Virus record (IMG/VR): IMGVR_UViG_3300036830_000465
Span: 1-63,641 of that record
Strand: one strand, 5' to 3'
From: a virus
Taxonomy: Duplodnaviria > Caudoviricetes
Length of the DNA stretch: 63,641 bases
The position numbers and the translations under genes were made by a program. Below are positions 4,025 through 63,641 of this stretch, in pieces. A model generated the notes under the pieces. The model was not told the DNA's origin, searched no databases, and worked only from the letters and a program-made list of their open reading frames with translations. Numbering within the stretch: the first letter of the stretch is position 1; each line of letters starts with the position of its first letter.

Positions 4025-4368
4025 ACCGCTTTGACCACAACCCAGATGTCCGGCGCCGACGTCGAGGGGTAGGGATGCGTGCCGTCTCCATCGGCGACAA
4101 ACCAGCGCGCACGATACGGGGAAAGATCGGCTGAGAGATCGTCGGCGTCGCGATTGAATCGCGCCTTACTGAGCGCCTCGTCTTCCCAGACGACCTTGCC
4201 GCTGGTCACGACGGCCACACCGTCGCAGCCGCACAATTCCAGGGAAATGGTTTTCCCGGTGGCGTCAAACGGCGCCGGATCGTCAAAGGAATCAAACGCG
4301 CGGTTTTTCAACTGAACGATGACGGGCTCGTCAATGCTTTCGATAATGGAATCCAGCGTCAGGCTCAT
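4021..4368 (-). CDS. Virion structural protein, BppU-N-like
   Basis: Size and pattern (P.D.TG.TI.L, D.DL....Y.A.W, YPS) resemble BppU N-terminal domains; late-operon context. Confidence 0.5.
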   Translation of the reverse strand: MSLTLDSIIESIDEPVIVQLKNRAFDSFDDPAPFDATGKTISLELCGCDGVAVVTSGKVVWEDEALSKARFNRDADDLSADLSPYRARWFVADGDGTHPYPSTSAPDIWVVVKAV

Positions 4369-4629
4369 TCACTCCACCTTTCCAACGGTTCGGACAAGCG
4401 CCGCGGGAATACTCGAGCGCTCGATTGCTGCGTTGTGGCCCGACCGGACCATGGCCGCCGGCATGGCGCTCCCGAGATCGCGGGCATCGACGGTCGAGCG
4501 GTAAACCATATCCGGCAGGAAGTAGGACGTGAGGCGCGCGGCCACATGGGTAATGTTGTCGCCGAGATCTTCGACGACGGCCGGCGTCTGCCCCAAAGAG
4601 AATCGCCCGATCGGTGCTCCTCCAAACAT
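4369..4629 (-). CDS. Hypothetical virion-associated protein
   Basis: GGAG before ATG 4629; tightly packed in the operon. Confidence 0.55.
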   Translation of the reverse strand: MFGGAPIGRFSLGQTPAVVEDLGDNITHVAARLTSYFLPDMVYRSTVDARDLGSAMPAAMVRSGHNAAIERSSIPAALVRTVGKVE

Positions 4630-4636
4630 CGCTCCC

Positions 4637-5320
4637 TCAATCCAGATAGCTTCGCCATTCGGCGTCGTAAGTCTGCGGCGGCCCAATGCCGGGCAGGCCT
4701 TCAGTGAAATGCACCAGCGCGGGATCGATGTCCGGATTCGAATGGCCGGACAGCCAGTTCCAGGCTTCCGGCAGAAATCCGATTTCATGGTCCGGCAGCC
4801 AGCAAAACCGGTGCAGATCCCGGCCGGGTAACAAATTCAGCAAGTCGAGTGTCAGCCGCTGATGTGACGGGTGAGACAGATTCCAGAGCAGGACGCTGCT
4901 CCAGTTTTTGCGCGGATACGCGGTCTGAACATGGACGCCTTTCTTCACTGCCGCCGCCGGCTCGTAATGATGGGGAACCGCCATGACGGCAAACTGATGA
5001 TCCGCCAGCGCGAACAGCTGCTGAATGTCGGCGCGAAACAACACGTCTCCATCCACGAACAGCACCCAGGGGCAATCATCAATCTGCGGGATGAAGAAGC
5101 GCGCAATCGCATGTGCGGTGCTCATCGGCGCCTGAGAGATATCGTCCCAGGCTCGGCCATCACGAACGCTGGTCGCTCTCGTATAAAGCTGGTGCGCCAG
5201 ATGATGCCGGGAGATCCACCGGATATCGACGGGAGCGGTGGCGTGCCGGCGCAGCGATGCCGTCGCCACGCGCACCGCGTCCTGCTCGTCCGGATCCCAG
5301 CCGATGTACACGCGATTCAT
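4637..5320 (-). CDS. Glycosyltransferase (GT8-like, phage/CDI type)
   Basis: YIGWD, STAHAIARF, FVDGD, YPRKNWSS, VHFTEG. Confidence 0.85.
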   Translation of the reverse strand: MNRVYIGWDPDEQDAVRVATASLRRHATAPVDIRWISRHHLAHQLYTRATSVRDGRAWDDISQAPMSTAHAIARFFIPQIDDCPWVLFVDGDVLFRADIQQLFALADHQFAVMAVPHHYEPAAAVKKGVHVQTAYPRKNWSSVLLWNLSHPSHQRLTLDLLNLLPGRDLHRFCWLPDHEIGFLPEAWNWLSGHSNPDIDPALVHFTEGLPGIGPPQTYDAEWRSYLD

Positions 5321-5328
5321 GGCTGAAA

Positions 5329-5583
5329 TCAGGCAGCCTCTCCGGAGCCGGACCCGGCTTTCGAATCTTCGGTATCGACTGAAAATGGGACGCCGGCAAA
5401 CATCTTCTCCTTGAGGCTGCGCACCTCGGTCTTCAGGGCTTCAACCTGCGATTGCAGGACCGCCTTTTCGGCTGCGTCTGCGGTGGCCGTGATGGTCTTT
5501 CGGATCTCGGCGATCTTGACCCGGATTTCATCGACGCGGCGGACATAGAGTTGCTTGTTCTGTTTCTGTGGATTATTAGCCAT
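5329..5583 (-). CDS. Small coiled-coil protein
   Basis: GGAG RBS; heptad pattern. Confidence 0.6.
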   Translation of the reverse strand: MANNPQKQNKQLYVRRVDEIRVKIAEIRKTITATADAAEKAVLQSQVEALKTEVRSLKEKMFAGVPFSVDTEDSKAGSGSGEAA

Positions 5584-5595
5584 GGCGGATTCTCC

Positions 5596-6918
5596 TTATT
5601 TGCGTTTGGGTTTCGGACCGACGACGACGCGAAGCTCGCTCCCGGCTTCGACAATTTTCCGGATCTGAAAATGGCGTTCGAGTTTGGTTTCCCACCACTC
5701 CCGGCACTTCTGGATCAGATGGGTGTTGCGGCCGTCCGGCAGCGTCTTCTGTGCCGGGCGCATGCTGATGGTGAAGTAGCCGGCCTTGAGGACGCACCGG
5801 CGCAAATCGTCCAACACCAGATCGATGAATTCCGGCTCGATGTGTTCGAGCACGTCCGTACAGACGACGATATCGGCGGGCTTTGGACACTCGGTCTTGC
5901 CGGGAATCGCCGGGTCGTATTCCGCGATTGCCCAGGGGATGTTTTTACCGAGATGCCCCTTACCGCAGCCGTAGTCGAGAATGTTCTTGGTTTTCAGGAG
6001 TTCTGAAAAATGAATTACGATCGCTGCGTGCCGCGCGCCGCCCACGCCATAAGCCAGATTCTCGCGGTGCAACTGCTCGTTCATCGAGCGGTATTCCACC
6101 GACAGCAGTTCGGGTTTCTTCGATGCCATCGCCGGCATCCCGTTCTTATGGGTTTTCCGGACATAGCGTTTGGCCATCGCCTGGACCAGGCCTTCACCGT
6201 GGAACGTGGCGGTCACATCCGGCAGCTGATCCAGTTCGTGCCAGGTCTCTTTCGCGCACTGCAGCATGGCCGTTGTGGTGCGGTAGGACACCCCCTCGTA
6301 GTCGATGACGCTGAAATCCTGCGGCTGGTTCGGATGCGCCGCCGCGTGCTTGCCGAACGGCCCCTCGCAGCCGTCCATTCCAAAGACATGCAAATTGGTG
6401 TAGCCGAGAAAACGGGCGATGGTCATGGCGCGCAAGCCAACATTGGATCCGCCGGTGATTGCCCATTCGCCGCGTGGCTGCAGGCGCAGCAGCTCAAGCT
6501 CGTTGGTGAACACGTGCCAGAGCCGGACGTCAAAGCCTTCCAGGTGATCAAACAGCTTGGGATGACAGGCCGAGGCAATCAGGTATTCCACGCCCGCGTG
6601 CGGCAGTCCCAGTAGCGCCACCTTGTGTTCCCGCGGATCGACCTCGACGTGATGCGTGGGAATGATGCCGCGATCGATCAGGAATTTGTGGCTGCCCGAG
6701 CAGCTGATAATGGTTTTATAGGACCGGATCTCTTCCCAGGTTTCATTGAGGCTCGGCCCGTAGCAGACGATCGCCGCCGGCTGCGATTGCAGCCGGCCTT
6801 CCTGGATCCGCCCGCGCACGCGAGCGGTCGAGAGCCGGACCTGTTCGTCCCGAAGCCAGAGCGGAATGCAGTATTCGACTTTCAGTTGTTCATCGATGTG
6901 AAGCGTCCGGGGCTCCAT
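5596..6918 (-). CDS. Maf/DUF115 (MAF_flag10/MptE-like) domain fused to SAM methyltransferase
   Basis: AIVCYGPSL, VEVDP, GGSNVG..A...GY..LHVFGMD; C-terminal ILDYGCGKG and CTDVLEHI; true start near 6918 (TGATG overlap). Confidence 0.8.
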   Translation of the reverse strand: MEPRTLHIDEQLKVEYCIPLWLRDEQVRLSTARVRGRIQEGRLQSQPAAIVCYGPSLNETWEEIRSYKTIISCSGSHKFLIDRGIIPTHHVEVDPREHKVALLGLPHAGVEYLIASACHPKLFDHLEGFDVRLWHVFTNELELLRLQPRGEWAITGGSNVGLRAMTIARFLGYTNLHVFGMDGCEGPFGKHAAAHPNQPQDFSVIDYEGVSYRTTTAMLQCAKETWHELDQLPDVTATFHGEGLVQAMAKRYVRKTHKNGMPAMASKKPELLSVEYRSMNEQLHRENLAYGVGGARHAAIVIHFSELLKTKNILDYGCGKGHLGKNIPWAIAEYDPAIPGKTECPKPADIVVCTDVLEHIEPEFIDLVLDDLRRCVLKAGYFTISMRPAQKTLPDGRNTHLIQKCREWWETKLERHFQIRKIVEAGSELRVVVGPKPKRK

Positions 6919-7535
6919 CACGCCCATAAATCGATCCTTCCCACGCCGGTATAGTCGCGAACGATGACGTCGGTGATTTCCACGTCGCCGATTGCGCCCG
7001 GCGGCTGCACCATGAGGCCCACCTGTCCTTTGCCGCTGGCAATATTGGTGTCCGTGGCTTTGGTGATCAGGACGCCATTCTGATAAACGAAAATACTGCT
7101 GCCGATGGCGACGGCTGTATAGATATCGCCGACAGTCATCGTGATCGTCGGTGGGGTATTGATCGCCGTTTCCACGCCGGCGACCAGCGCCCACATCTCG
7201 GCGCGCTGACTGCTGCCACTGGCATTCATGACGAAAAATATTTCGTAGCCGTTGTTGCCGGCCACATCCGCACGCAGGAACAGAATCACCGAAGTCACGC
7301 CAGGGTTTGCCGGATTGAGCGTGGCCAGTCGGCAGCTCACCATCTGATCCGGCGTTGGCGTGAATCCGCCGAAGATTCCGGTGTTGTAGGGGCCCGGGTT
7401 CACCAGAGCTGAGGACCGGACCTTGTTGCCCACCACCTTCAGGGGGACTCCGGTGGTGCCCACGCTCCACTTGCCGCCGCTCGATAGCGGATTCTCGTCG
7501 GCCTGCGGGAAGCTGTCCTTGTAGTACTGGATCAT
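6918..7535 (-). CDS. Beta-rich (ConA/lectin-like) virion protein
   Basis: Beta-strand-rich composition; coupled to the fibre gene. Confidence 0.55.
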   Translation of the reverse strand: MIQYYKDSFPQADENPLSSGGKWSVGTTGVPLKVVGNKVRSSALVNPGPYNTGIFGGFTPTPDQMVSCRLATLNPANPGVTSVILFLRADVAGNNGYEIFFVMNASGSSQRAEMWALVAGVETAINTPPTITMTVGDIYTAVAIGSSIFVYQNGVLITKATDTNIASGKGQVGLMVQPPGAIGDVEITDVIVRDYTGVGRIDLWA

Positions 7536-56189: not shown

Positions 56190-59100
56190 ACGCGCGCGGC
56201 GCTCCCGGCGCGGTTCACGGCTTCCTTGAGCCTGCCATCGGTTTGCAGTCCGCGGATGATTTCTTCTCTGATCTTTCGGCCGGTATCTGCCGGTGAGTCG
56301 GTTGCCGTTCCGTAAACGTGAATGTCGCCAACGGTGATATTGCTTCGGCCGCTATCTCTCGACGATCCCCGGTTCTGCGCCGCCGTGGTGACCCGCTCCC
56401 CCTGGTGCAGGAAATACGCGCCATCCCAAGGCACCCACGGCGTCCCCATCGCGTATTGGGTCAGCGGCGTGCCGACTTCGGTACCATAGCTGACCGTGCC
56501 GTAACCCGGCGAGTAGGTGTTGACGAGGTTTGTGTTGGAGGTATCCGGCGCGACCGTGCGCACGATGCTGTCAATCCAGTTGAGCCAGTTGTTGACAAAC
56601 GGACTTTCTGTAGCGAAGAACTGATCGCCGACCTGCTTGCGGTCGCTGCTGTTGCCCTCCCAGCGGATAACCGCGCCGGTGACATCGCTCCACGCCTGAT
56701 ACATGGCCTGCTGCGCATTGGTGGCCTCGTAGGGCTGAATGGTTCCGGCATCGACGCCGGTGGTCACGGCATTGATGATTCCGGCGAATTGCTGATCGAA
56801 CGGATTCTGGAAGTTTTTAACCAGATCGTTGGCTTCAAAATGCGCCATGGATTTGATCAGGCCGGTGATACCCAGAACCGAACCGGCAACGGCCAGCGTG
56901 ATCGGATTGGTGGCAAAGGCGCCGATGGAAGCAAGAGTTCCGCCGCCAGCAGTTCCGGCGGTAGCCGCGGCGGCGCTCCCAGCACCAACGACGTTATCGG
57001 CGCTGAATCCGGCCTTCGCCAGGGCCGCGCTGTAACCCCCATCTCCACCCAAAGCGTCGAGGAATCCGGCGGTCAATGATGTCAATTTCTCCCGCAGCGG
57101 TCCCAGCGCCGCATCAATGATGGAATTCAGGGTCTTATTGAAAAACGTCTCGAACTCGTTTTGGATCGGCCCGATGAACCAGCCCGCGATTTTCTCTCCG
57201 GCATCTTTCGCGACATTGCCCATCGTGAGGGCGCCCTGATGAAAGTGATCGAAGAAGGTGTCTGTGATGTTGCCCCACGTCAGGGCCTCGCCGTGCAGCG
57301 TGGCGCTGATGCCTTCGATGCTGGTATTGACCGATGCGACGTGCGCCTCATACTGTTTTTGCGCCGCGTCGAGGGCCGCCGTACGCTTCTTCTCGTCCGA
57401 TTCATACTGCGCCGTGGTGACCTGATCGAGCGAGGCCTGGAAGCCCGCGATGAGTTTGTCCTCACCTACCAGAAAGGCAGCATTGGACGCCGACAGGTTT
57501 TTTGAGGCATCGGCAACAGCCTGCATTCCGCTGGTAATCAATTTGGTTTCGTCGTCGAAGAATTTCTCCAGCGAGGCGGCGCTGGTTTTCGCGAGACCGG
57601 TATTGATCTCGCTGATCATGTGGGACCAATCGTTGATCTGCTTGGTGTTGTTATCGAGGAAGGTCTTAAAATCGAACGAACTCGCCAGTGCCTGAACGCT
57701 GGCATTGACCGTGATTCCGGCCGCATGAAATTTGCTCGCCATGTCGGAGGCCTGCTTGCCCATTTCCGGCAGCAGCTGATTCAGCGTTAGTCCGCGGCCT
57801 TGAAGCAAAAGAATCGCGCCGGCCAGGTCTTTTTCCGCGGCCGTGGTGGGAATGACCGACGCGGTAAGACTGGCGACCGCGTCGGCATGCCTTTTCGCCT
57901 CCTCTTCCGCCTGCTTCAATGCGAGAGTAACTTTATCGATTACCGGCGGAACGATGCCATGGGCCTTTATGAAATCCTGAATTTTTGCGGTGTTGTCGCC
58001 AATGCCATCGGAATTCGTCAGTAGGGCATTGCGCATATCCCACAGGTTTGCGGAGGTCTTTAAGATGGAATTTCCGGCATCGGTCAACGTCTTTCCGAGC
58101 CCGGTCTGACCGAGAGCCGTTGCCAGCGTGCCCGCGCCTTGTCCCAGGGCGCCAAGATAGAAAATCAAATCCGCCGTGACACCCAGAACACCAGCAGCCA
58201 AAACATCCTTGTAATGGAGGGCCGCAGTGGTCAGGCCAACGAACGCGAGAATGGAGAGACTGATCGGGTTCGCATCCATTACGAGATTGAGGGCCACCCA
58301 TGCGGTTTTCAGATTCGCAATTCCAACAATCAAACCGCCAGTCCCTAGCAGAACCGCGCCTACTTCGACCGCCGCTCGCGATATATCCAGAAGGGAGGTC
58401 ACGACGTCCGGGTTTTCCTTCGCCCAGTCTTTTACCTGGACAATGGCGTCGGTCGCCGAAGTGATCCATTTCTCCAGAATCGGATAAGCCTCTTCGCCAA
58501 TCGCATGCGACAGGCCCGTAAAACTGAGATGTAAATTGTCGAGCGTGTCTTCGAACTGATTGGCCTTGTCTGCGGCTTCCTTGTCGAAAACAATTCCCAG
58601 CCGGTGCGCCTGATCCGCGAGTTCGGAAATGCCGTCACGCCCGAGATTCAATACGGGAATCATGGCCAACCCGCCGCGGCCAAAGAGTTCGACGGCAAGT
58701 GCGGATTTTTCCGCACCGTCCGCCATGTGAGAAAACTTATCGGCGACGTCCAGAAGAACATCCTGCGTGGGGCGCAGCTGGCCGTTAGCAGAGGTGGCGC
58801 TGATGCCGAGTTTCAGGAACGTATCAGCGGCCGCGCCTCCCTTCGTCTGGGCGTCTTCCATGTGCGTCGCGAGAATCCGCAGCCCGGAGGTCATGGCATC
58901 AAGGGAAGTGCCTTGCTGGCTGGCAACGTAGCCCCACTCGGAAAGCGCAGTCGCGGAAAGACCGGTGCTCTGGTAAAGCGTGTAAATCTGAGACCCGGCC
59001 TTTGATGTCGAGTCCGCCATTTCAAGGAGCGTCCCAATGATCGTCACGCCAGCCCCGGCAATGGCGGCCCCGGACAAAGCGAATGTCGAGCCGACCTGTG

Positions 59101-59254
59101 TCCAACTGACTTCCATCTCCTTTGCCGCGTCGCCAGACTTTTCGCCTAAGTCCTCCGCAGCGTCAGAAGTGCGCTCAATGCCCTGCGCAATCTTCTCGAA
59201 TGTCGAGATGACGCCTTCTTCGTTGATCTTGGTGATGAATTGGATGGTTGGCAA
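56186..59254 (-). CDS. Tape measure protein
   Basis: 1022 aa Ala-rich helical; A.ELFGRGG..M.P.L; YAMGT.WVP.DG..FLHQGERV. Confidence 0.9.
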   Translation of the reverse strand: MPTIQFITKINEEGVISTFEKIAQGIERTSDAAEDLGEKSGDAAKEMEVSWTQVGSTFALSGAAIAGAGVTIIGTLLEMADSTSKAGSQIYTLYQSTGLSATALSEWGYVASQQGTSLDAMTSGLRILATHMEDAQTKGGAAADTFLKLGISATSANGQLRPTQDVLLDVADKFSHMADGAEKSALAVELFGRGGLAMIPVLNLGRDGISELADQAHRLGIVFDKEAADKANQFEDTLDNLHLSFTGLSHAIGEEAYPILEKWITSATDAIVQVKDWAKENPDVVTSLLDISRAAVEVGAVLLGTGGLIVGIANLKTAWVALNLVMDANPISLSILAFVGLTTAALHYKDVLAAGVLGVTADLIFYLGALGQGAGTLATALGQTGLGKTLTDAGNSILKTSANLWDMRNALLTNSDGIGDNTAKIQDFIKAHGIVPPVIDKVTLALKQAEEEAKRHADAVASLTASVIPTTAAEKDLAGAILLLQGRGLTLNQLLPEMGKQASDMASKFHAAGITVNASVQALASSFDFKTFLDNNTKQINDWSHMISEINTGLAKTSAASLEKFFDDETKLITSGMQAVADASKNLSASNAAFLVGEDKLIAGFQASLDQVTTAQYESDEKKRTAALDAAQKQYEAHVASVNTSIEGISATLHGEALTWGNITDTFFDHFHQGALTMGNVAKDAGEKIAGWFIGPIQNEFETFFNKTLNSIIDAALGPLREKLTSLTAGFLDALGGDGGYSAALAKAGFSADNVVGAGSAAAATAGTAGGGTLASIGAFATNPITLAVAGSVLGITGLIKSMAHFEANDLVKNFQNPFDQQFAGIINAVTTGVDAGTIQPYEATNAQQAMYQAWSDVTGAVIRWEGNSSDRKQVGDQFFATESPFVNNWLNWIDSIVRTVAPDTSNTNLVNTYSPGYGTVSYGTEVGTPLTQYAMGTPWVPWDGAYFLHQGERVTTAAQNRGSSRDSGRSNITVGDIHVYGTATDSPADTGRKIREEIIRGLQTDGRLKEAVNRAGSAARV

Positions 59255-59692
59255 TTATGCGCCCCTCGACTGCCGTTCCCACTCCCAGGCAAATGCGCTG
59301 AGATGTTGAAATTCGGTTTCCCGTAAATCCGAAATCGTGAGAAGTCCAAGTCGAGCGGCGTGATAGAAACGCTGAGCGAGGTCGATGTCCGGCCAGTATA
59401 GTTCGATTAACTTTTCGTCGTCCTGTTTTTCTTCCGTCTTCTCCTTGCCCCGGGGGTTATCCGGGCATCCGTAACAGGCGTGCGGCGACATGCTGAGTTT
59501 GCCGCATTCCAGCTTTGGTTTCAGATTGAAGAGCCATTCCGCGGCCGCCTGCTTGTCGCTGTCGCTGGCATCGGGCTTCGGCAGTTTCGGAAAGATGTCT
59601 CTCCATTGTGGCTCCCATTGGCATGTTCCCGAAGATCCCCGCAGGTGCGCGGCAACCGCAGTGCGGAATTCTTCGAGAGCTACACGTTTTTT
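59255..59692 (-). CDS. Tail chaperone GT extension reached by -1 frameshift
   Basis: A_AAA_AAC at 59692-59686; -1 frame open into the 59255-59491 ORF. Confidence 0.8.
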   Translation of the reverse strand, partial: KKRVALEEFRTAVAAHLRGSSGTCQWEPQWRDIFPKLPKPDASDSDKQAAAEWLFNLKPKLECGKLSMSPHACYGCPDNPRGKEKTEEKQDDEKLIELYWPDIDLAQRFYHAARLGLLTISDLRETEFQHLSAFAWEWERQSRGA

Positions 59693-60453
59693 CTCTGCGC
59701 CTCCTGAAACAACTGTTCAATCGCGTTGATCTTCCATTGAAAGGGAAGTGTGCGAACGACGTCGGCGCGATCGCCGATAACACCATCCACATGGTGAATC
59801 ATGGCGTCGTAGAGCTTTCCCAGTTCTTTGTAATTGACCACCACCTTGCGCGCGCCACCGTCGAGCGTGCGGAACTTCTGCGAACGCTGATACGTGGTGG
59901 CCTGTTGCGCGGTCGGCAATTCGAAGTGATGCACGAGGCATAATTCCTGCTCGACGTTGTTATCGTCGGCCAGCAACATGCGCTGCTCGACGCTGGGCAG
60001 ATCCTCCAGCAACTCATCGAGTGTCGGCGCCGCGCGTTCTGCCGCCTTCGGCGTTCCGACCGTCAGTAGACCCTGAAGCACGGTATGCAGCCTTAGATTG
60101 TTGATGCGGTCCAGCCGGTCGAATTGTTCGGGCGAGAGTTCGGTTCCCTGATAGGCCACGGCAATCCGGTGATCATCGAAGAAGCGAGCGATCGCGTCGA
60201 TCGAGCCAGGCTCGTGATCGGTGCCGCCGTCTTTGTCCGGAGAAGCGACGGAATACCCGTTGCGTTCGCGCAAGATGGCCATGGTGCGCTCGGCAGTGGC
60301 GGGCTTCAGGTGACAGAAGAATTCCAGTTTTTGGCCGGCGCGTTTGATCGTCAGGGCGACACAGAGACGCTCGCCGGAAAGATCGTATTGGGGAATCGGT
60401 GACTGACTGAGGTCGGTGGAATTGAGGAGGACGAGGACATTCTTACCTTGCAT
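59680..60453 (-). CDS. Tail assembly chaperone G
   Basis: Upstream of TMP; ends ..RKNV* at the slippery site. Confidence 0.75.
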   Translation of the reverse strand: MQGKNVLVLLNSTDLSQSPIPQYDLSGERLCVALTIKRAGQKLEFFCHLKPATAERTMAILRERNGYSVASPDKDGGTDHEPGSIDAIARFFDDHRIAVAYQGTELSPEQFDRLDRINNLRLHTVLQGLLTVGTPKAAERAAPTLDELLEDLPSVEQRMLLADDNNVEQELCLVHHFELPTAQQATTYQRSQKFRTLDGGARKVVVNYKELGKLYDAMIHHVDGVIGDRADVVRTLPFQWKINAIEQLFQEAQRKNV

Positions 60454-60516
60454 TGTCTTGATCTCCGTCCCGGCTCAGCTGGAGATACGCGACAATGCCG
60501 GGTTGAAAAATGTTAG

Positions 60517-60810
60517 TTACAGTGGGCGATCCGGACAGCCGGTGCACCCGTCGGGATTCAGCGCAATCAAAGAACACGCTGGCTTCAACGCGGCTATCTT
60601 CTCAGAATTACCCGCCGCCCGCAATACCAACTCGAATCGATGACGTTCCGGACACTGACTGTCGGCCAGAAGCCTGAAGTCGAACACTTTCAGGTGGAGC
60701 GCCCTTCTCTTGCCATCGTACTCGATCGATGCGGAATCCACTTCAATGCGGTGGCCGTTATATTCGATCTCGATCGCATGGCGATTCTTGTCCAGTCTGG
60801 CGGTGATCAT
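60517..60810 (-). CDS. Hypothetical protein (left flank of cassette)
   Basis: ATGA-coupled to the HTH gene. Confidence 0.6.
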   Translation of the reverse strand: MITARLDKNRHAIEIEYNGHRIEVDSASIEYDGKRRALHLKVFDFRLLADSQCPERHRFELVLRAAGNSEKIAALKPACSLIALNPDGCTGCPDRPL

Positions 60811-61070
60811 TTTCTCAATCGTACGCCAGGACCGCCGCCATTCTTCTCAATAAAAATCACTCCAGCTTTTGTGAGCGCCGCACAGATCCGCTCCATTGTG
60901 CCGGATCGCTGGTTTGCCCCTGCGGCTTCAATCATGACGAGAGTTCGCAGTGATACCCCGCACTCTTCCGCCAGTCTATCGCGCGACCAATTCAGAAGTG
61001 CACGCGCCGCCCTGATCTGAGAGGCCGTAATTTCAGTTGCATGTTTTGTGCAATATTCTCTTGACTGCAT
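60807..61070 (-). CDS. XRE HTH regulator of the inverted cassette
   Basis: QIRAARALLNWS...LA...GVS..T...E...GV.FI..NGGGPGVRL; start uncertain. Confidence 0.85.
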   Translation of the reverse strand: MQSREYCTKHATEITASQIRAARALLNWSRDRLAEECGVSLRTLVMIEAAGANQRSGTMERICAALTKAGVIFIEKNGGGPGVRLRK

Positions 61071-61097
61071 CGCGTGCAGTATTGCACGATTCGTGCA
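61037..61097. promoter_or_regulatory. Three TGCA-bounded palindromes (operators) overlapping a TTGACT -35 element
   Basis: TTGCA-N7-TGCAA 61037-53; ACTGCA-N5-TGCAGT 61064-80; TGCACGA-T-TCGTGCA 61083-97. Confidence 0.65.
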
Positions 61098-61135
61098 TCT
61101 GTCAAACGACAGAAAAACACACCAAGGAGAATGCA

Positions 61136-61798
61136 ATGGCAACTACGAAGACCTCGGAAACAAAGTCGGTGGCAATTCCAGCGCCGAGATTCGGAAGGGC
61201 TGAATTCCTGATTGAGGGCACCGCCCCGCTCGTCATCCATCGGTTTTCAGCGAAGACAAAAGAGCAGATGAAACAAAAGATGGAGACCGGCAAGGCCGCC
61301 GGGAGCCGCAAAAACCGTGAGGCCAAACAGACCGATGATCTTTACAAAGAAGCGCGCTATATCAGCAAGGAAGGCTGGGACGGGTTTCACGCCGGAGCCG
61401 TGCGCAACGCTCTCATTTCAGCGTGCCGCCTTGTCGGCTTCAAAATGACGCTCGCTAAACTCTCGCTATTCGTCGAGGCCGATGGGCGCGATGCGGAAGA
61501 GCCCCAGATTCCACTCGTTCGAATCATCGGAAAATGCGTCAAGCAGGAAGATATGGCCAGGGTCGAAACCGGACAGCCTTACGTCACAGTTCGGGCGGCG
61601 TTCCATGAATGGAAGGCTAAGATCCGGCTGCGCTGGGACGAGGATCAGTTCACACTACAAGACGTTACCAATCTTCTCTCGCGAGTTGGAATGCAGGTCG
61701 GCCTGTGTGAGGGGCGCCCCGATTCTCCGAATTCTGCAGGAATGGGATGGGGCTTGTTTGAGATTTCCAAAACCGAACCAAGAAAGGCGACAGCGTGA
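61136..61798 (+). CDS. RAMP/Cas7-like protein (putative RNA-guided effector)
   Basis: IEGTAPLVIH first strand, A.AVRNAL..A helix, C-terminal Gly-rich loop VGLCEGRP....GMGWGLF; AAGGAG RBS. Confidence 0.6.
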   Translation: MATTKTSETKSVAIPAPRFGRAEFLIEGTAPLVIHRFSAKTKEQMKQKMETGKAAGSRKNREAKQTDDLYKEARYISKEGWDGFHAGAVRNALISACRLVGFKMTLAKLSLFVEADGRDAEEPQIPLVRIIGKCVKQEDMARVETGQPYVTVRAAFHEWKAKIRLRWDEDQFTLQDVTNLLSRVGMQVGLCEGRPDSPNSAGMGWGLFEISKTEPRKATA

Positions 61799-62235
61799 CA
61801 AATCAGAAAATCATTTCGGAGCTTCGGCGCATCGCGAAAAAGCACGATGGCCTATTGAATCCATCGGACGTTGTCGAAGAGGCTCGCTCGAAATCTTCGC
61901 CGCTGCATGGAAAGTTCGAGTGGGACGATTCCGCGGCTGCGGAGCGTTACCGGCTCTGGCAGGCCCGTCAGCTTATCTCGGTTACCGTCGAATATGTCGG
62001 CGGCAATAAGGACGGCGTTCTTTCCAGAGTATTCGTAAGCCTCAGTTCGGACCGCAAAGAAGAGGGTGGCTACCGGACGATTGAAGCTGTCATGTCGAGG
62101 CAGGGAAGCCGCGAACGATTGCTTCAGGATGCGCTGGACGATATGCAGACATTCAGGGATCGTTATTCGGCGCTCAAGGAATTGGCCGGCGTCTTTGCGG
62201 CGATGCGCAAAGTCAGGGGCAAAGCAGCGGCATAG
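61795..62235 (+). CDS. Conserved partner protein of the RAMP-like gene
   Basis: GTGA-coupled; L.P..VV..AR...SPLH..FEWDD..AA..YRL.QAR.LI. Confidence 0.75.
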   Translation: MTNQKIISELRRIAKKHDGLLNPSDVVEEARSKSSPLHGKFEWDDSAAAERYRLWQARQLISVTVEYVGGNKDGVLSRVFVSLSSDRKEEGGYRTIEAVMSRQGSRERLLQDALDDMQTFRDRYSALKELAGVFAAMRKVRGKAAA

Positions 62236-62244
62236 AGACTCTTT

Positions 62245-62570
62245 GGCGTGGATGGGCAGGTGGGGTCGTGCACGAAATGGCCTGTGGCGGCTGGGAGAGC
62301 TAAGGATGGGAATGGCTCTGCAGGTTAGGCGAGTCGGGTCAATGTCGGGACGGGAGTGTTCTGGTGTGGATTGTTAAGGCGCGGCAGGTCAGGTCAGGAA
62401 TGTTCAGGTGCGGCCGGGGTAGGCTGGTGAGGCCTGGGGTGGCAGGACAGGCGAGGTACGGATTGGACTGGATGGCCCAGGAGTGGAAAGTTTCTGTAGG
62501 GCAGGCAAGGTGCGGTATGGAAAGTCGGGGCGGGAAGCGTCGCGGGTAGGTAAGACGCGGCAGGCAAGTC
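62245..62570 (+). repeat. 5-nt periodic GGNNN array in GGCA-delimited units (putative guide ncRNA)
   Basis: (G/T)GCAGG at 62255, 62319, 62383, 62441, 62500, 62559; 39 of 56 pentamers start with GG and 53 of 56 with G. Confidence 0.85.
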
Positions 62571-63404
62571 TTAGCTTCCGAGAATGGGGACTGGATCAAG
62601 CACCAGCTCCCCCATTCTGTCCTCGCGAAAATAGAAGTAACGCTCGAACCAATCGCGCAAGGCGGGCTCACCGCCGCGTTCGTAGGCCGCATAGTAGCTT
62701 CGCCAGTGCGCCCCCTCGTGTTCTGGAAGATTCGCCACCCGGTAAGCCAATCCGCCGTTGATCGATTTTTTTATGAAATGCTCGGCGCTTCTGTAGGGAA
62801 AGTGTGCGATGCGCAGCGCCGTCGTTTTCTTCGTTTGAAGAAGGCTCCCATCCGCATTCAGCGCGCTGTGATTGCCTTGCTGGACGGTCATCCCTGGGCT
62901 TGCGCGGAATATAACTTTCGGTAACACGTTCGGCGGCTTGTGCCGATGCTGGATGCGGAGGAAGGGATTCGCGTTCTCCTTGTCCATGTGACAAGGAAAG
63001 TAGTTGGCCATCGGAATTTCGAAACCGCGAACGTCGTCTTCCATTTCGAAGGACCGGAGATAGTCGCTGAAGGTTTCGCCGGTGTTGCAGATTAATAACT
63101 CGTCGGCATCGAATGGCACCAGCCAGGGGCGCTCGACGCCGGATAACTCGATTGCCCTGCCCACGAGAGATGTCATCTTCTGGCTCTGGTAGTAGCCCCG
63201 CTCCGGATCGTCGATAAGAATGATTGGGATGCCCGCCGATTTCTGAATGGTGGAAATCTGATAGCGCGTGCTGTCGGATGAGGCATTATCCGCAATGATG
63301 ATGCCGTCCACGCCGGAGGCGATGAGATGGAGTAGGGTGAAGGAAATGATGTCGGCTTCGTCCTTTACCATTCCAACAGCCCAGACCTGCGGAGCCTTGC
63401 TCAC
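62571..63404 (-). CDS. GT2-like glycosyltransferase (right flank of cassette)
   Basis: MVKDEADII, IADN.SSDST, WLVPFDADE, HFPYRS. Confidence 0.88.
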   Translation of the reverse strand: MSKAPQVWAVGMVKDEADIISFTLLHLIASGVDGIIIADNASSDSTRYQISTIQKSAGIPIILIDDPERGYYQSQKMTSLVGRAIELSGVERPWLVPFDADELLICNTGETFSDYLRSFEMEDDVRGFEIPMANYFPCHMDKENANPFLRIQHRHKPPNVLPKVIFRASPGMTVQQGNHSALNADGSLLQTKKTTALRIAHFPYRSAEHFIKKSINGGLAYRVANLPEHEGAHWRSYYAAYERGGEPALRDWFERYFYFREDRMGELVLDPVPILGS

Positions 63405-63640
63405 TGCGCGAATGCCGAGCGCTCGGCCAGCATCAGTCTTTCAACCGTGGCATCGTGAAGAAGTCGCGCCCCATCGAGAGTTATCGAGCACTCGTAGCTT
63501 TGCTGAAATCCGGAGCTGTCCTTAATCTCGACCGCCCATGCGCCATGCAGCTGGTGATACCACGTCTCGACTTTCTGGCCATTATCGAGCGTCGTGATTC
63601 GTGATCCGTCCGGCCACTGCCTCTCGTTGACGATTGTCAT
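63401..63640 (-). CDS. Hypothetical protein
   Basis: Its RBS (GGAG) lies across the circular junction near positions 16-19. Confidence 0.6.
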   Translation of the reverse strand: MTIVNERQWPDGSRITTLDNGQKVETWYHQLHGAWAVEIKDSSGFQQSYECSITLDGARLLHDATVERLMLAERSAFAQ

Positions 63641-63641
63641 T

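Follow-up and report, generated by a model that had tools for sequence, protein, structure and literature searches.

A distant VIPR cassette in a tailed-phage contig probably targets flanking-gene alleles of cassette-less relatives

Guide units and the genes that flank the cassette

What does the guide array of a phage-borne Viral Interference Programmable Repeat (VIPR) system target when partial matches to its guides lie in the genes on either side of it? This question is raised by a 1.76-kb cassette at positions 60811 to 62570 of IMG/VR virus record IMGVR_UViG_3300036830_000465 (Duplodnaviria; Caudoviricetes), a single contig of 63,641 bases (hereafter, the window), to which the self-match scans of this genome are confined. 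The cassette comprises a helix-turn-helix (HTH) gene, vipr, vap, and an array of guide RNAs (vrRNAs), and its edges are the stop codon of a glycosyltransferase (GT) gene on one side and the start of a gene for a protein of 97 amino acids (aa) on the other. This locus belongs to the VIPR systems, among which it is new and distant, and its array is staggered. We consider it likely that two of its guides (units 2 and 5) target the alleles of both flanking genes that are found in relatives lacking the cassette, so that the system silences kin and spares its carrier.

VIPR systems are described (bioRxiv 10.64898/2026.04.26.720920) as consisting of an approximately 20-kDa RAMP protein (Vipr), a vap gene, and vrRNAs of 9 to 16 GGY/NN pentamers, in which the NN bases pair with double-stranded DNA (dsDNA) under a "1-nt skip rule" and the skipped base is usually a codon wobble position. 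According to the same source, the targets sit in competing phages and satellites, natural targets are defined by an NN match of at least 80%, and no self-hits at or above 80% are reported. The NN-x code and the VIPR system are thus already published, and the choice of flanking-gene alleles as targets is what this locus adds. The nearest statement in the portions of the VIPR preprints considered here (the above and its companions, bioRxiv.720927 and 10.64898/2026.10.15.759431) is that some vrRNAs match the vrRNAs or vipr genes of other phages better than their own; flank-directed targeting was not found in the main text of two of these preprints.

The flanking genes and the array, with the units obtained by parsing the latter, are as follows.

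60517-60810, minus strand: left-flank gene (97 aa), an open reading frame (ORF) holding the partial resident match of unit 2
62245-62563, plus strand: staggered vrRNA array of GGNNN pentamers, non-coding, recognized by its period-5 G signal
62245-62259, plus strand: stub of 3 pentamers
62259-62323, plus strand: unit 1, 13 pentamers
62323-62387, plus strand: unit 2, 13 pentamers
62387-62445, plus strand: unit 3, 12 pentamers, with a 1-nt slip near 62422-62426
62445-62504, plus strand: unit 4, 12 pentamers
62504-62563, plus strand: unit 5, 12 pentamers
62571-63404, minus strand: right-flank family-2 GT gene (Pfam Glyco_tranf_2_4, E = 7.6e-9; 36.4 bits against a cut-off of 27.5)

A first-pass annotation of the window had aligned the dinucleotides of three units, read as NN-x-NN-x, with neighboring genes. 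Those dinucleotides are positions 4 and 5 of each pentamer with the constant last pentamer omitted, and we think this omission was the right choice. The matches are literally present for units 2, 5, and 4, and all of their coordinates were confirmed. Unit 2 (62323-62382) matches positions 60720-60685 on the minus strand at 6 of 12 dinucleotides and 17 of 24 bases (71%); this site encodes the 12-residue peptide that had been read there, 9 residues of which are compatible with the guide, and opposite its pair of Arg codons, AGA AGG, the guide reads CG CG. Unit 5 (62504-62558) matches positions 62768-62736 on the minus strand at 7 of 11 dinucleotides and 16 of 22 bases (73%), within a conserved motif near residue 213 of the GT. 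The match of unit 4 at 60305-60327 on the plus strand covers 6 of 8 dinucleotides.

By score alone, the resident-genome matches of units 2 and 5 are at chance level. The unit 2 site is the single best in the window, with one site at or above 17/24 against 0.5 expected from order shuffles; three sites tie for unit 5 at or above 16/22, against 1.1 expected. For the full unit 2, constant last pentamer included, the best shuffled score reaches the observed one with a probability of 0.80; for the full unit 5, the top match lies elsewhere. The best self match is at most 76% for all five guides (e.g., 16/21 for unit 3, 71% for unit 2, and 73% for unit 5).

The informative comparison is with a relative that has an empty site. 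A metagenome scan yielded L053, part of a 64.8-kb metagenome contig of which our comparisons cover 12.3 kb. It carries homologs of the GT (5173-5985; 60% identity), the 97-aa protein (6001-6291; 60%), and the 257-aa protein encoded beyond it in the window (6382-7173; 57%) in contiguous genes, and the GT and 97-aa homologs are about 15 bases apart, in place of the 1.76-kb cassette of the window. Neither vipr nor vap nor an array was found within the 12.3 kb. At the homologous L053 sites, unit 2 matches 19 of 24 bases (79%) and unit 5 matches 19 of 22 (86%), each with P = 0.001 in 2,000 shuffles; unit 5 also reaches 86% in a further locus (L052). The two L053 sites lie approximately 90 bp to the right and 160 to 190 bp to the left of the empty site, i.e., about 300 bp apart. 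For units 1, 3, and 4 in L053, P ranges from 0.73 to 1.0. Besides the GT site, unit 5 has a second wobble-aligned match of 16/22 in the window (60560-60591, plus strand), opposite the coding strand of the 97-aa gene; it is probably due to chance, because it is not among the top two unit 5 matches in L053.

A rescue test is free of the bias that comes from having selected the resident matches, since it considers only the guide positions mismatched in the resident copy and asks whether the relative carries the guide base there. For unit 2, 6 of 7 such positions have the guide base in L053, both Arg codons included (binomial P = 8e-5). For unit 5, the count is 3 of 6 in L053 (P = 4e-3) and 6 of 6 in both L034 and L046 (P about 1e-5). 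The Arg-Arg pair is CGN CGN in all three true homolog loci (L053, L054, and L055, the last two being identical at the unit 2 site), and AGA AGG occurs only in the cassette carrier; AGR accounts for 177 of the 1,494 Arg codons in the window. The proposal that the resident copies are mismatched or recoded is thus borne out, with 71% and 73% in the window against 79% and 86% in L053 and AGA AGG against CGN CGN. The resident copies differ from the guides at 6 or 7 positions and are therefore below the published 80% threshold. The broader idea that the guides aim at homologous alleles of the flanking genes holds for units 2 and 5 and fails for unit 4, whose full guide matches 13 of 22 bases in the resident site and 12 of 22 in L053, with none of 9 mismatches rescued; we regard that match as chance.

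The recurrence of unit 5 matches at one motif was also seen in more distant loci. Among 225 kb of IMG/VR loci containing 25 GT relatives (34 to 44% identity), the five best unit 5 matches all fall on the site homologous to that in the window, with scores up to 19/24, or 18/22 if the constant pentamer is omitted, and P values of 0.004 to 0.03 from shuffles. In 1.12 Mb of bacterial decoy loci (i.e., GT homologs at 39% identity or less from a genome_contigs scan), the three best unit 5 matches (18, 17, and 17 of 22) are again on the GT motif, and unit 2 has no match at 19/24. None of 120 GT-homolog peptides is fully compatible with unit 5 over its 11 residues, and two are compatible at 10 of 11. 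For the 97-aa gene, neither IMG/VR nor genome_contigs yielded a relative, and only two homologs occur among 5.8 billion proteins; 2 distant loci came from a P0005-based scan of viral sequences. In a blind search of 126 guides against a 1.05-Mb local database, unit 5 on L053 was the best match, with E = 0.0028 per guide.

The wobble-skipping reading proposed from the sequence corresponds to the published 1-nt skip rule and was reproduced here. A skip of one base alone exceeds the null (for unit 2, P = 0.007; for unit 5, none of 300 shuffles reaches the score), and skips of 0, 2, and 3 give P values of 0.52 to 1.0 for the two units. Both target sites are in frame, with the skipped base at codon position 3. 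Controls in the other pentamer registers suffer from a confounder: a guide read from the GG positions picks out Gly-rich DNA. Taken in silico, these comparisons show units 2 and 5 as apparently written against conserved codons of both flanking genes as they read in cassette-less relatives.

Flank-directed guides at other VIPR loci

Vipr homologs at 48 to 79% identity are encoded on 25 viral contigs, and guide units were called in 24 of these 25 loci. For a further test, we took the two loci with the strongest partial matches to their own flanks and with relatives that could be retrieved. In L024, the first guide of the upstream array matches the adjacent aminotransferase-like gene on the left flank at 17 of 22 bases in the resident genome and at 20 of 22 (91%) in L139 and L140. 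L139 is cassette-less, having 66 bp where L024 has a 1.66-kb cassette. On the right flank, the gene start is matched by the final guide of the downstream array at 16 of 18 bases in L140, against 10 of 18 at the resident site, which lies 10 bp past that array. For both L024 guides, none of 3,000 shuffles reaches the score. In L140, a different insert of 962 bp (4272-5234), with no vipr or vap match, occupies the site of the L024 cassette; the site shared by L024, L139, and L140 looks like a cargo hotspot.

At L014, a guide matches the C-terminal catalytic-Tyr motif of an adjacent integrase gene at 25 of 36 bases in the resident copy and at 30 of 36 (83%) in L142, whose integrase shares 44% protein identity with that of L014; again, none of 3,000 shuffles reaches the guide score. 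Six of the 11 mismatches are rescued in L142, and one match is lost. The integrase-directed guide is carried by a separate unit of 19 pentamers followed by an A-run (6951-7045), which lies by the 3' end of the integrase gene, apart from the arrays at 5191-5526 and 5706-5986, and resembles a "solo" vrRNA. For an integrase candidate in L025, no relative other than itself was found.

Proteins, array, and surroundings of the cassette

The remaining features of the cassette are listed below.

60807-61142, minus strand: HTH regulator gene, divergent from vipr (Pfam HTH_3, E = 5.4e-7)
61136-61798, plus strand: vipr, encoding a 220-aa RAMP protein (phrog_4652, function unknown, E = 7e-12)
61795-62235, plus strand: vap, encoding a 146-aa accessory protein (phrog_15946, function unknown, E = 1.8e-23)
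62581-62618, unstranded: hairpin between the array end and the GT stop codon, from RNA folding

The assignment of Vipr rests on a profile of 22 homologs, which matches PDB 36pp_D ("SUSP1 Vipr protein") with E = 3.1e-4 and 23.4 bits over 53 columns; tblastn gives no match between the two proteins. Among the RNA-contact residues of SUSP1 Vipr, R138 of the thumb and D177 and R179 of the G-loop correspond in this alignment to R153, E192, and R194, all of which are invariant in the 22 sequences; the G-loop residue W178 corresponds to G193 here, and H17 and K33 lie outside the 53-column stretch. An AlphaFold2 model of Vipr (predicted local distance difference test [pLDDT] score, 78.9; predicted template modeling score, 0.75) has 22 Foldseek matches at E values of 1e-3 or less, the best being Csm3/Cas7 of type III complexes (E about 1e-4; template modeling score about 0.5), and the predicted architecture comprises an RRM core, a glycine-rich loop, and a thumb (RAMP fold). 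Homologs labelled "hypothetical protein" occur in Cyanophage Cy-LDV1 (54% identity) and in 27 Mycobacterium and 5 Gordonia phage records (about 30%).

A vap homolog follows vipr in 16 of the 25 loci (tblastn), and a single-sequence scan of viral contigs with vap gave no matches. The vap start overlaps the vipr stop in the window. In L004 (4610-5300) and L008 (3372-4100), a longer gene that has no tblastn match to the 146-aa vap follows vipr and is probably a different accessory gene within the same Vipr clade. The vap model (pLDDT, 89.6) has only weak fold matches, of a forkhead or winged-helix-like type (E of 0.2 to 1), and the predicted protein is possibly a winged helix with a long C-terminal helix. 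The GT and 97-aa genes are found in none of the 25 Vipr-homolog loci, and the HTH gene is absent from all of these as well as from the L053 empty site.

The G autocorrelation of the array reaches 0.35, 0.28, and 0.31 at lags of 5, 10, and 15, respectively, and the period-5 G stretch at 62245-62563 is unique within the window. Every unit closes with (G/T)GCAG, six such delimiter positions being found; the last G of one unit is the first G of the next, so that unit lengths are 5n-1. In the related loci, 82 of 126 units have GGCAG as their terminal pentamer, and the family-wide pentamer profile is G (.94), G (.85), and C plus T (.79), followed by two variable bases. Tandem Repeats Finder misses the 320-nt array even at its most permissive score and finds no direct-repeat array in 58000-63641. 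Rfam gives four matches at E values of 10 or less, none near its gathering score and none a hammerhead. An early idea, that a TRAP-like RNA wraps a ring protein, was abandoned when the VIPR papers came to light.

The locus shares several properties with published VIPR systems, namely, a small RAMP protein followed by an accessory vap gene, GG-headed pentamer guides with two programmable bases, a phage-borne location, a wobble-aligned code with a 1-nt skip, probable targets in competing mobile elements with lower self matches, and the staggered form with a 1-nt overlap, which the legend of fig. S18 describes for adjacent vrRNAs (bioRxiv 10.64898/2026.04.26.720920). It differs in that its Vipr is very distant from that of SUSP1 (which it matches in sequence at the profile level only), the third pentamer base is less strictly a pyrimidine, no separate pseudoknot tail is seen, units close with the constant GGCAG, the cassette includes an HTH regulator, and the guides aim at alleles of the genes adjoining their own insertion site. 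Class 1 CRISPR complexes offer a second comparison. Csm3/Cas7 resembles Vipr in predicted fold, and both are described in the VIPR preprints as oligomerizing along a guide RNA, with thumbs that break the pairing periodically. Unlike those systems, this locus has no CRISPR repeats, spacers, cas genes, or adaptation module (no Cas family was found among seven neighboring proteins in Pfam and PHROG), and the periods also differ, VIPR having 5 nt of guide to 3 nt of target and CRISPR 6 to 6.

The surroundings of the cassette look like a phage tail-gene region. Beyond the 97-aa gene, which has no Pfam or PHROG family above the cut-off, are the 257-aa gene and a 1,022-aa ORF resembling a tape-measure protein. 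The earlier label "chaperone G" for the 257-aa gene is unverified, because no Pfam or PHROG family matches it. The stop of the HTH gene overlaps the start of the 97-aa gene, and the GT gene is convergent with the array. In the divergent region between the HTH gene and vipr (61020-61142), a promoter-like site on the minus strand (61105-61078; 10 of 12 matches) stops just short of an in-frame ATG near 61070, which may therefore be the true HTH start; the transcript of the regulator may thus be leaderless, as with some phage repressors. The region of the hairpin (62560-62630) folds at -23.5 kcal/mol (z of -1.49), 17 of 200 shuffles folding equally well, and no T-run terminator was called there; the hairpin may be a two-way terminator, to which these values lend weak support.

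Competing explanations and implications

We favor the following account, the molecular steps of which are drawn by analogy from type II VIPR of Escherichia phage SUSP1, a system that acts through repression (bioRxiv 10.64898/2026.04.26.720920). Vipr protomers would coat each vrRNA, one per GGN head, and present the next two bases; these would pair with dsDNA while every third base is skipped, thereby blocking transcription, and sites below about 80% identity would escape. The two L053 sites lie in an apparent single operon leading to the 257-aa and tape-measure-like genes, and binding at both would shut that operon in a cassette-less competitor, in co-infection or in a resident prophage, while the operon of the carrier is spared. 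The downstream genes of the carrier could be driven by the promoter-like site on the HTH side of the cassette. The recoding to AGA AGG may serve to avoid self-targeting, and the suggested role in competition between phages fits the literature. As the resistant alleles lie on both sides of the cassette, a competitor that escaped through recombination would tend to acquire the cassette as well.

Several results weigh against this account. Units 1, 3, and 4 have no target in any of the DNA scanned. No guide has a 100% target, and the best match of unit 2 (79%) is just below the published cut. The scans of L053 cover 12.3 kb of a 64.8-kb contig, and a VIPR system may exist elsewhere in that genome. 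The rescue binomial is approximate, as it assumes independent sites and equal substitution odds. In a crude family-wide search, partial self-flank matches are not in excess: 9 of 126 have P < 0.05, where 6.3 are expected, and 3 of 223 have P < 0.01, where 2.2 are expected; the flank-allele rule is therefore shown for three loci and not for the clade. Only 62 to 75% of the pentamers in this array are headed by GG, and it could therefore be decaying. Finally, support for this account comes from the homologous sites, which had been specified beforehand, and from the rescue test, and not from the blind search, since the E value of the best match there becomes approximately 0.35 after correction for 126 guides.

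This last figure, together with the null-level scores in the window and the chance status of the unit 4 match, which had been found in the same way, would suit a genuine VIPR system whose guides aim elsewhere and whose flank matches are coincidental. We judge such coincidence very improbable, given that the homologous sites of relatives match better, with the gains falling at resident mismatches, that three separate sets of loci have their top matches at one and the same motif, and that L024 and L014 show the same pattern, with no shuffle of 3,000 reaching the scores. Slightly less credible still is self-regulation, in which the resident partial matches would be the true targets and VIPR would tune the operon of its own phage. 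Its resident sites are indeed wobble-aligned and are top or joint top in the window under the unit definition of the first-pass annotation, yet their 71 to 73% falls below the 80% level of natural targets, the portions of the VIPR papers considered report no self-hits at or above that level, and relatives outscore self in all three loci examined.

Another explanation with some claim to consideration is homing or drive without a nuclease, in which binding on both sides of the empty site would stall replication or transcription and so promote recombinational copying of the cassette with its resistant alleles. Free-standing homing endonuclease genes of phages are known for "intronless homing" and marker exclusion, and the carrier's own copy of the target is polymorphic and resistant. 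As here, they are selfish inserts between two conserved genes that attack the neighborhood of the empty site in relatives, and a resistant resident site beside the element mirrors their arrangement. The guides bracket their own empty site in L053 and address both flanks in L024, and the cassette, occurring in unrelated gene contexts across the 25 loci, evidently moves. Unlike homing endonucleases, the present system would recognize its sites through RNA, and silencing rather than cleavage is expected of it. No nuclease or recombinase domain was found in the vipr, vap, or HTH proteins (Pfam and PHROG, with a fold search for vap), nor any HNH, GIY-YIG, or LAGLIDADG-type nuclease family (Pfam and PHROG); the published type II system works by repression, and the L014 target is a plain conserved integrase motif in a gene of 44% identity. 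We therefore hold homing unlikely and prefer silencing of cassette-less kin. A wider proposal, which we offer tentatively and think possible rather than likely, is that the VIPR cassettes of this clade are RNA-guided selfish linkage elements, with guides against both sides of the empty site and the flank alleles of the carrier as a linked "antidote"; in its boldest form, binding at two flanks would promote copying of the cassette and so amount to RNA-guided homing without a nuclease.

At three independent loci (the window, L024, and L014), then, guides match conserved codons of adjoining genes as these read in relatives; at least two such relatives (L053 and L139) have an empty site, and the copies in the carriers are the poorer matches. 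For the prediction of vrRNA targets, this suggests a simple rule, i.e., to check the alleles of neighboring genes first. The locus in the window also provides natural pairs of "sensitive" and "resistant" sites usable for studying mismatch tolerance, among them an Arg-Arg pair whose synonymous recoding shows even to a guide blind to the wobble base. More generally, these observations offer a testable account of how a silencing cassette may spread and persist among recombining phages, by a logic like that of homing endonucleases or poison-antidote drives but guided by RNA.

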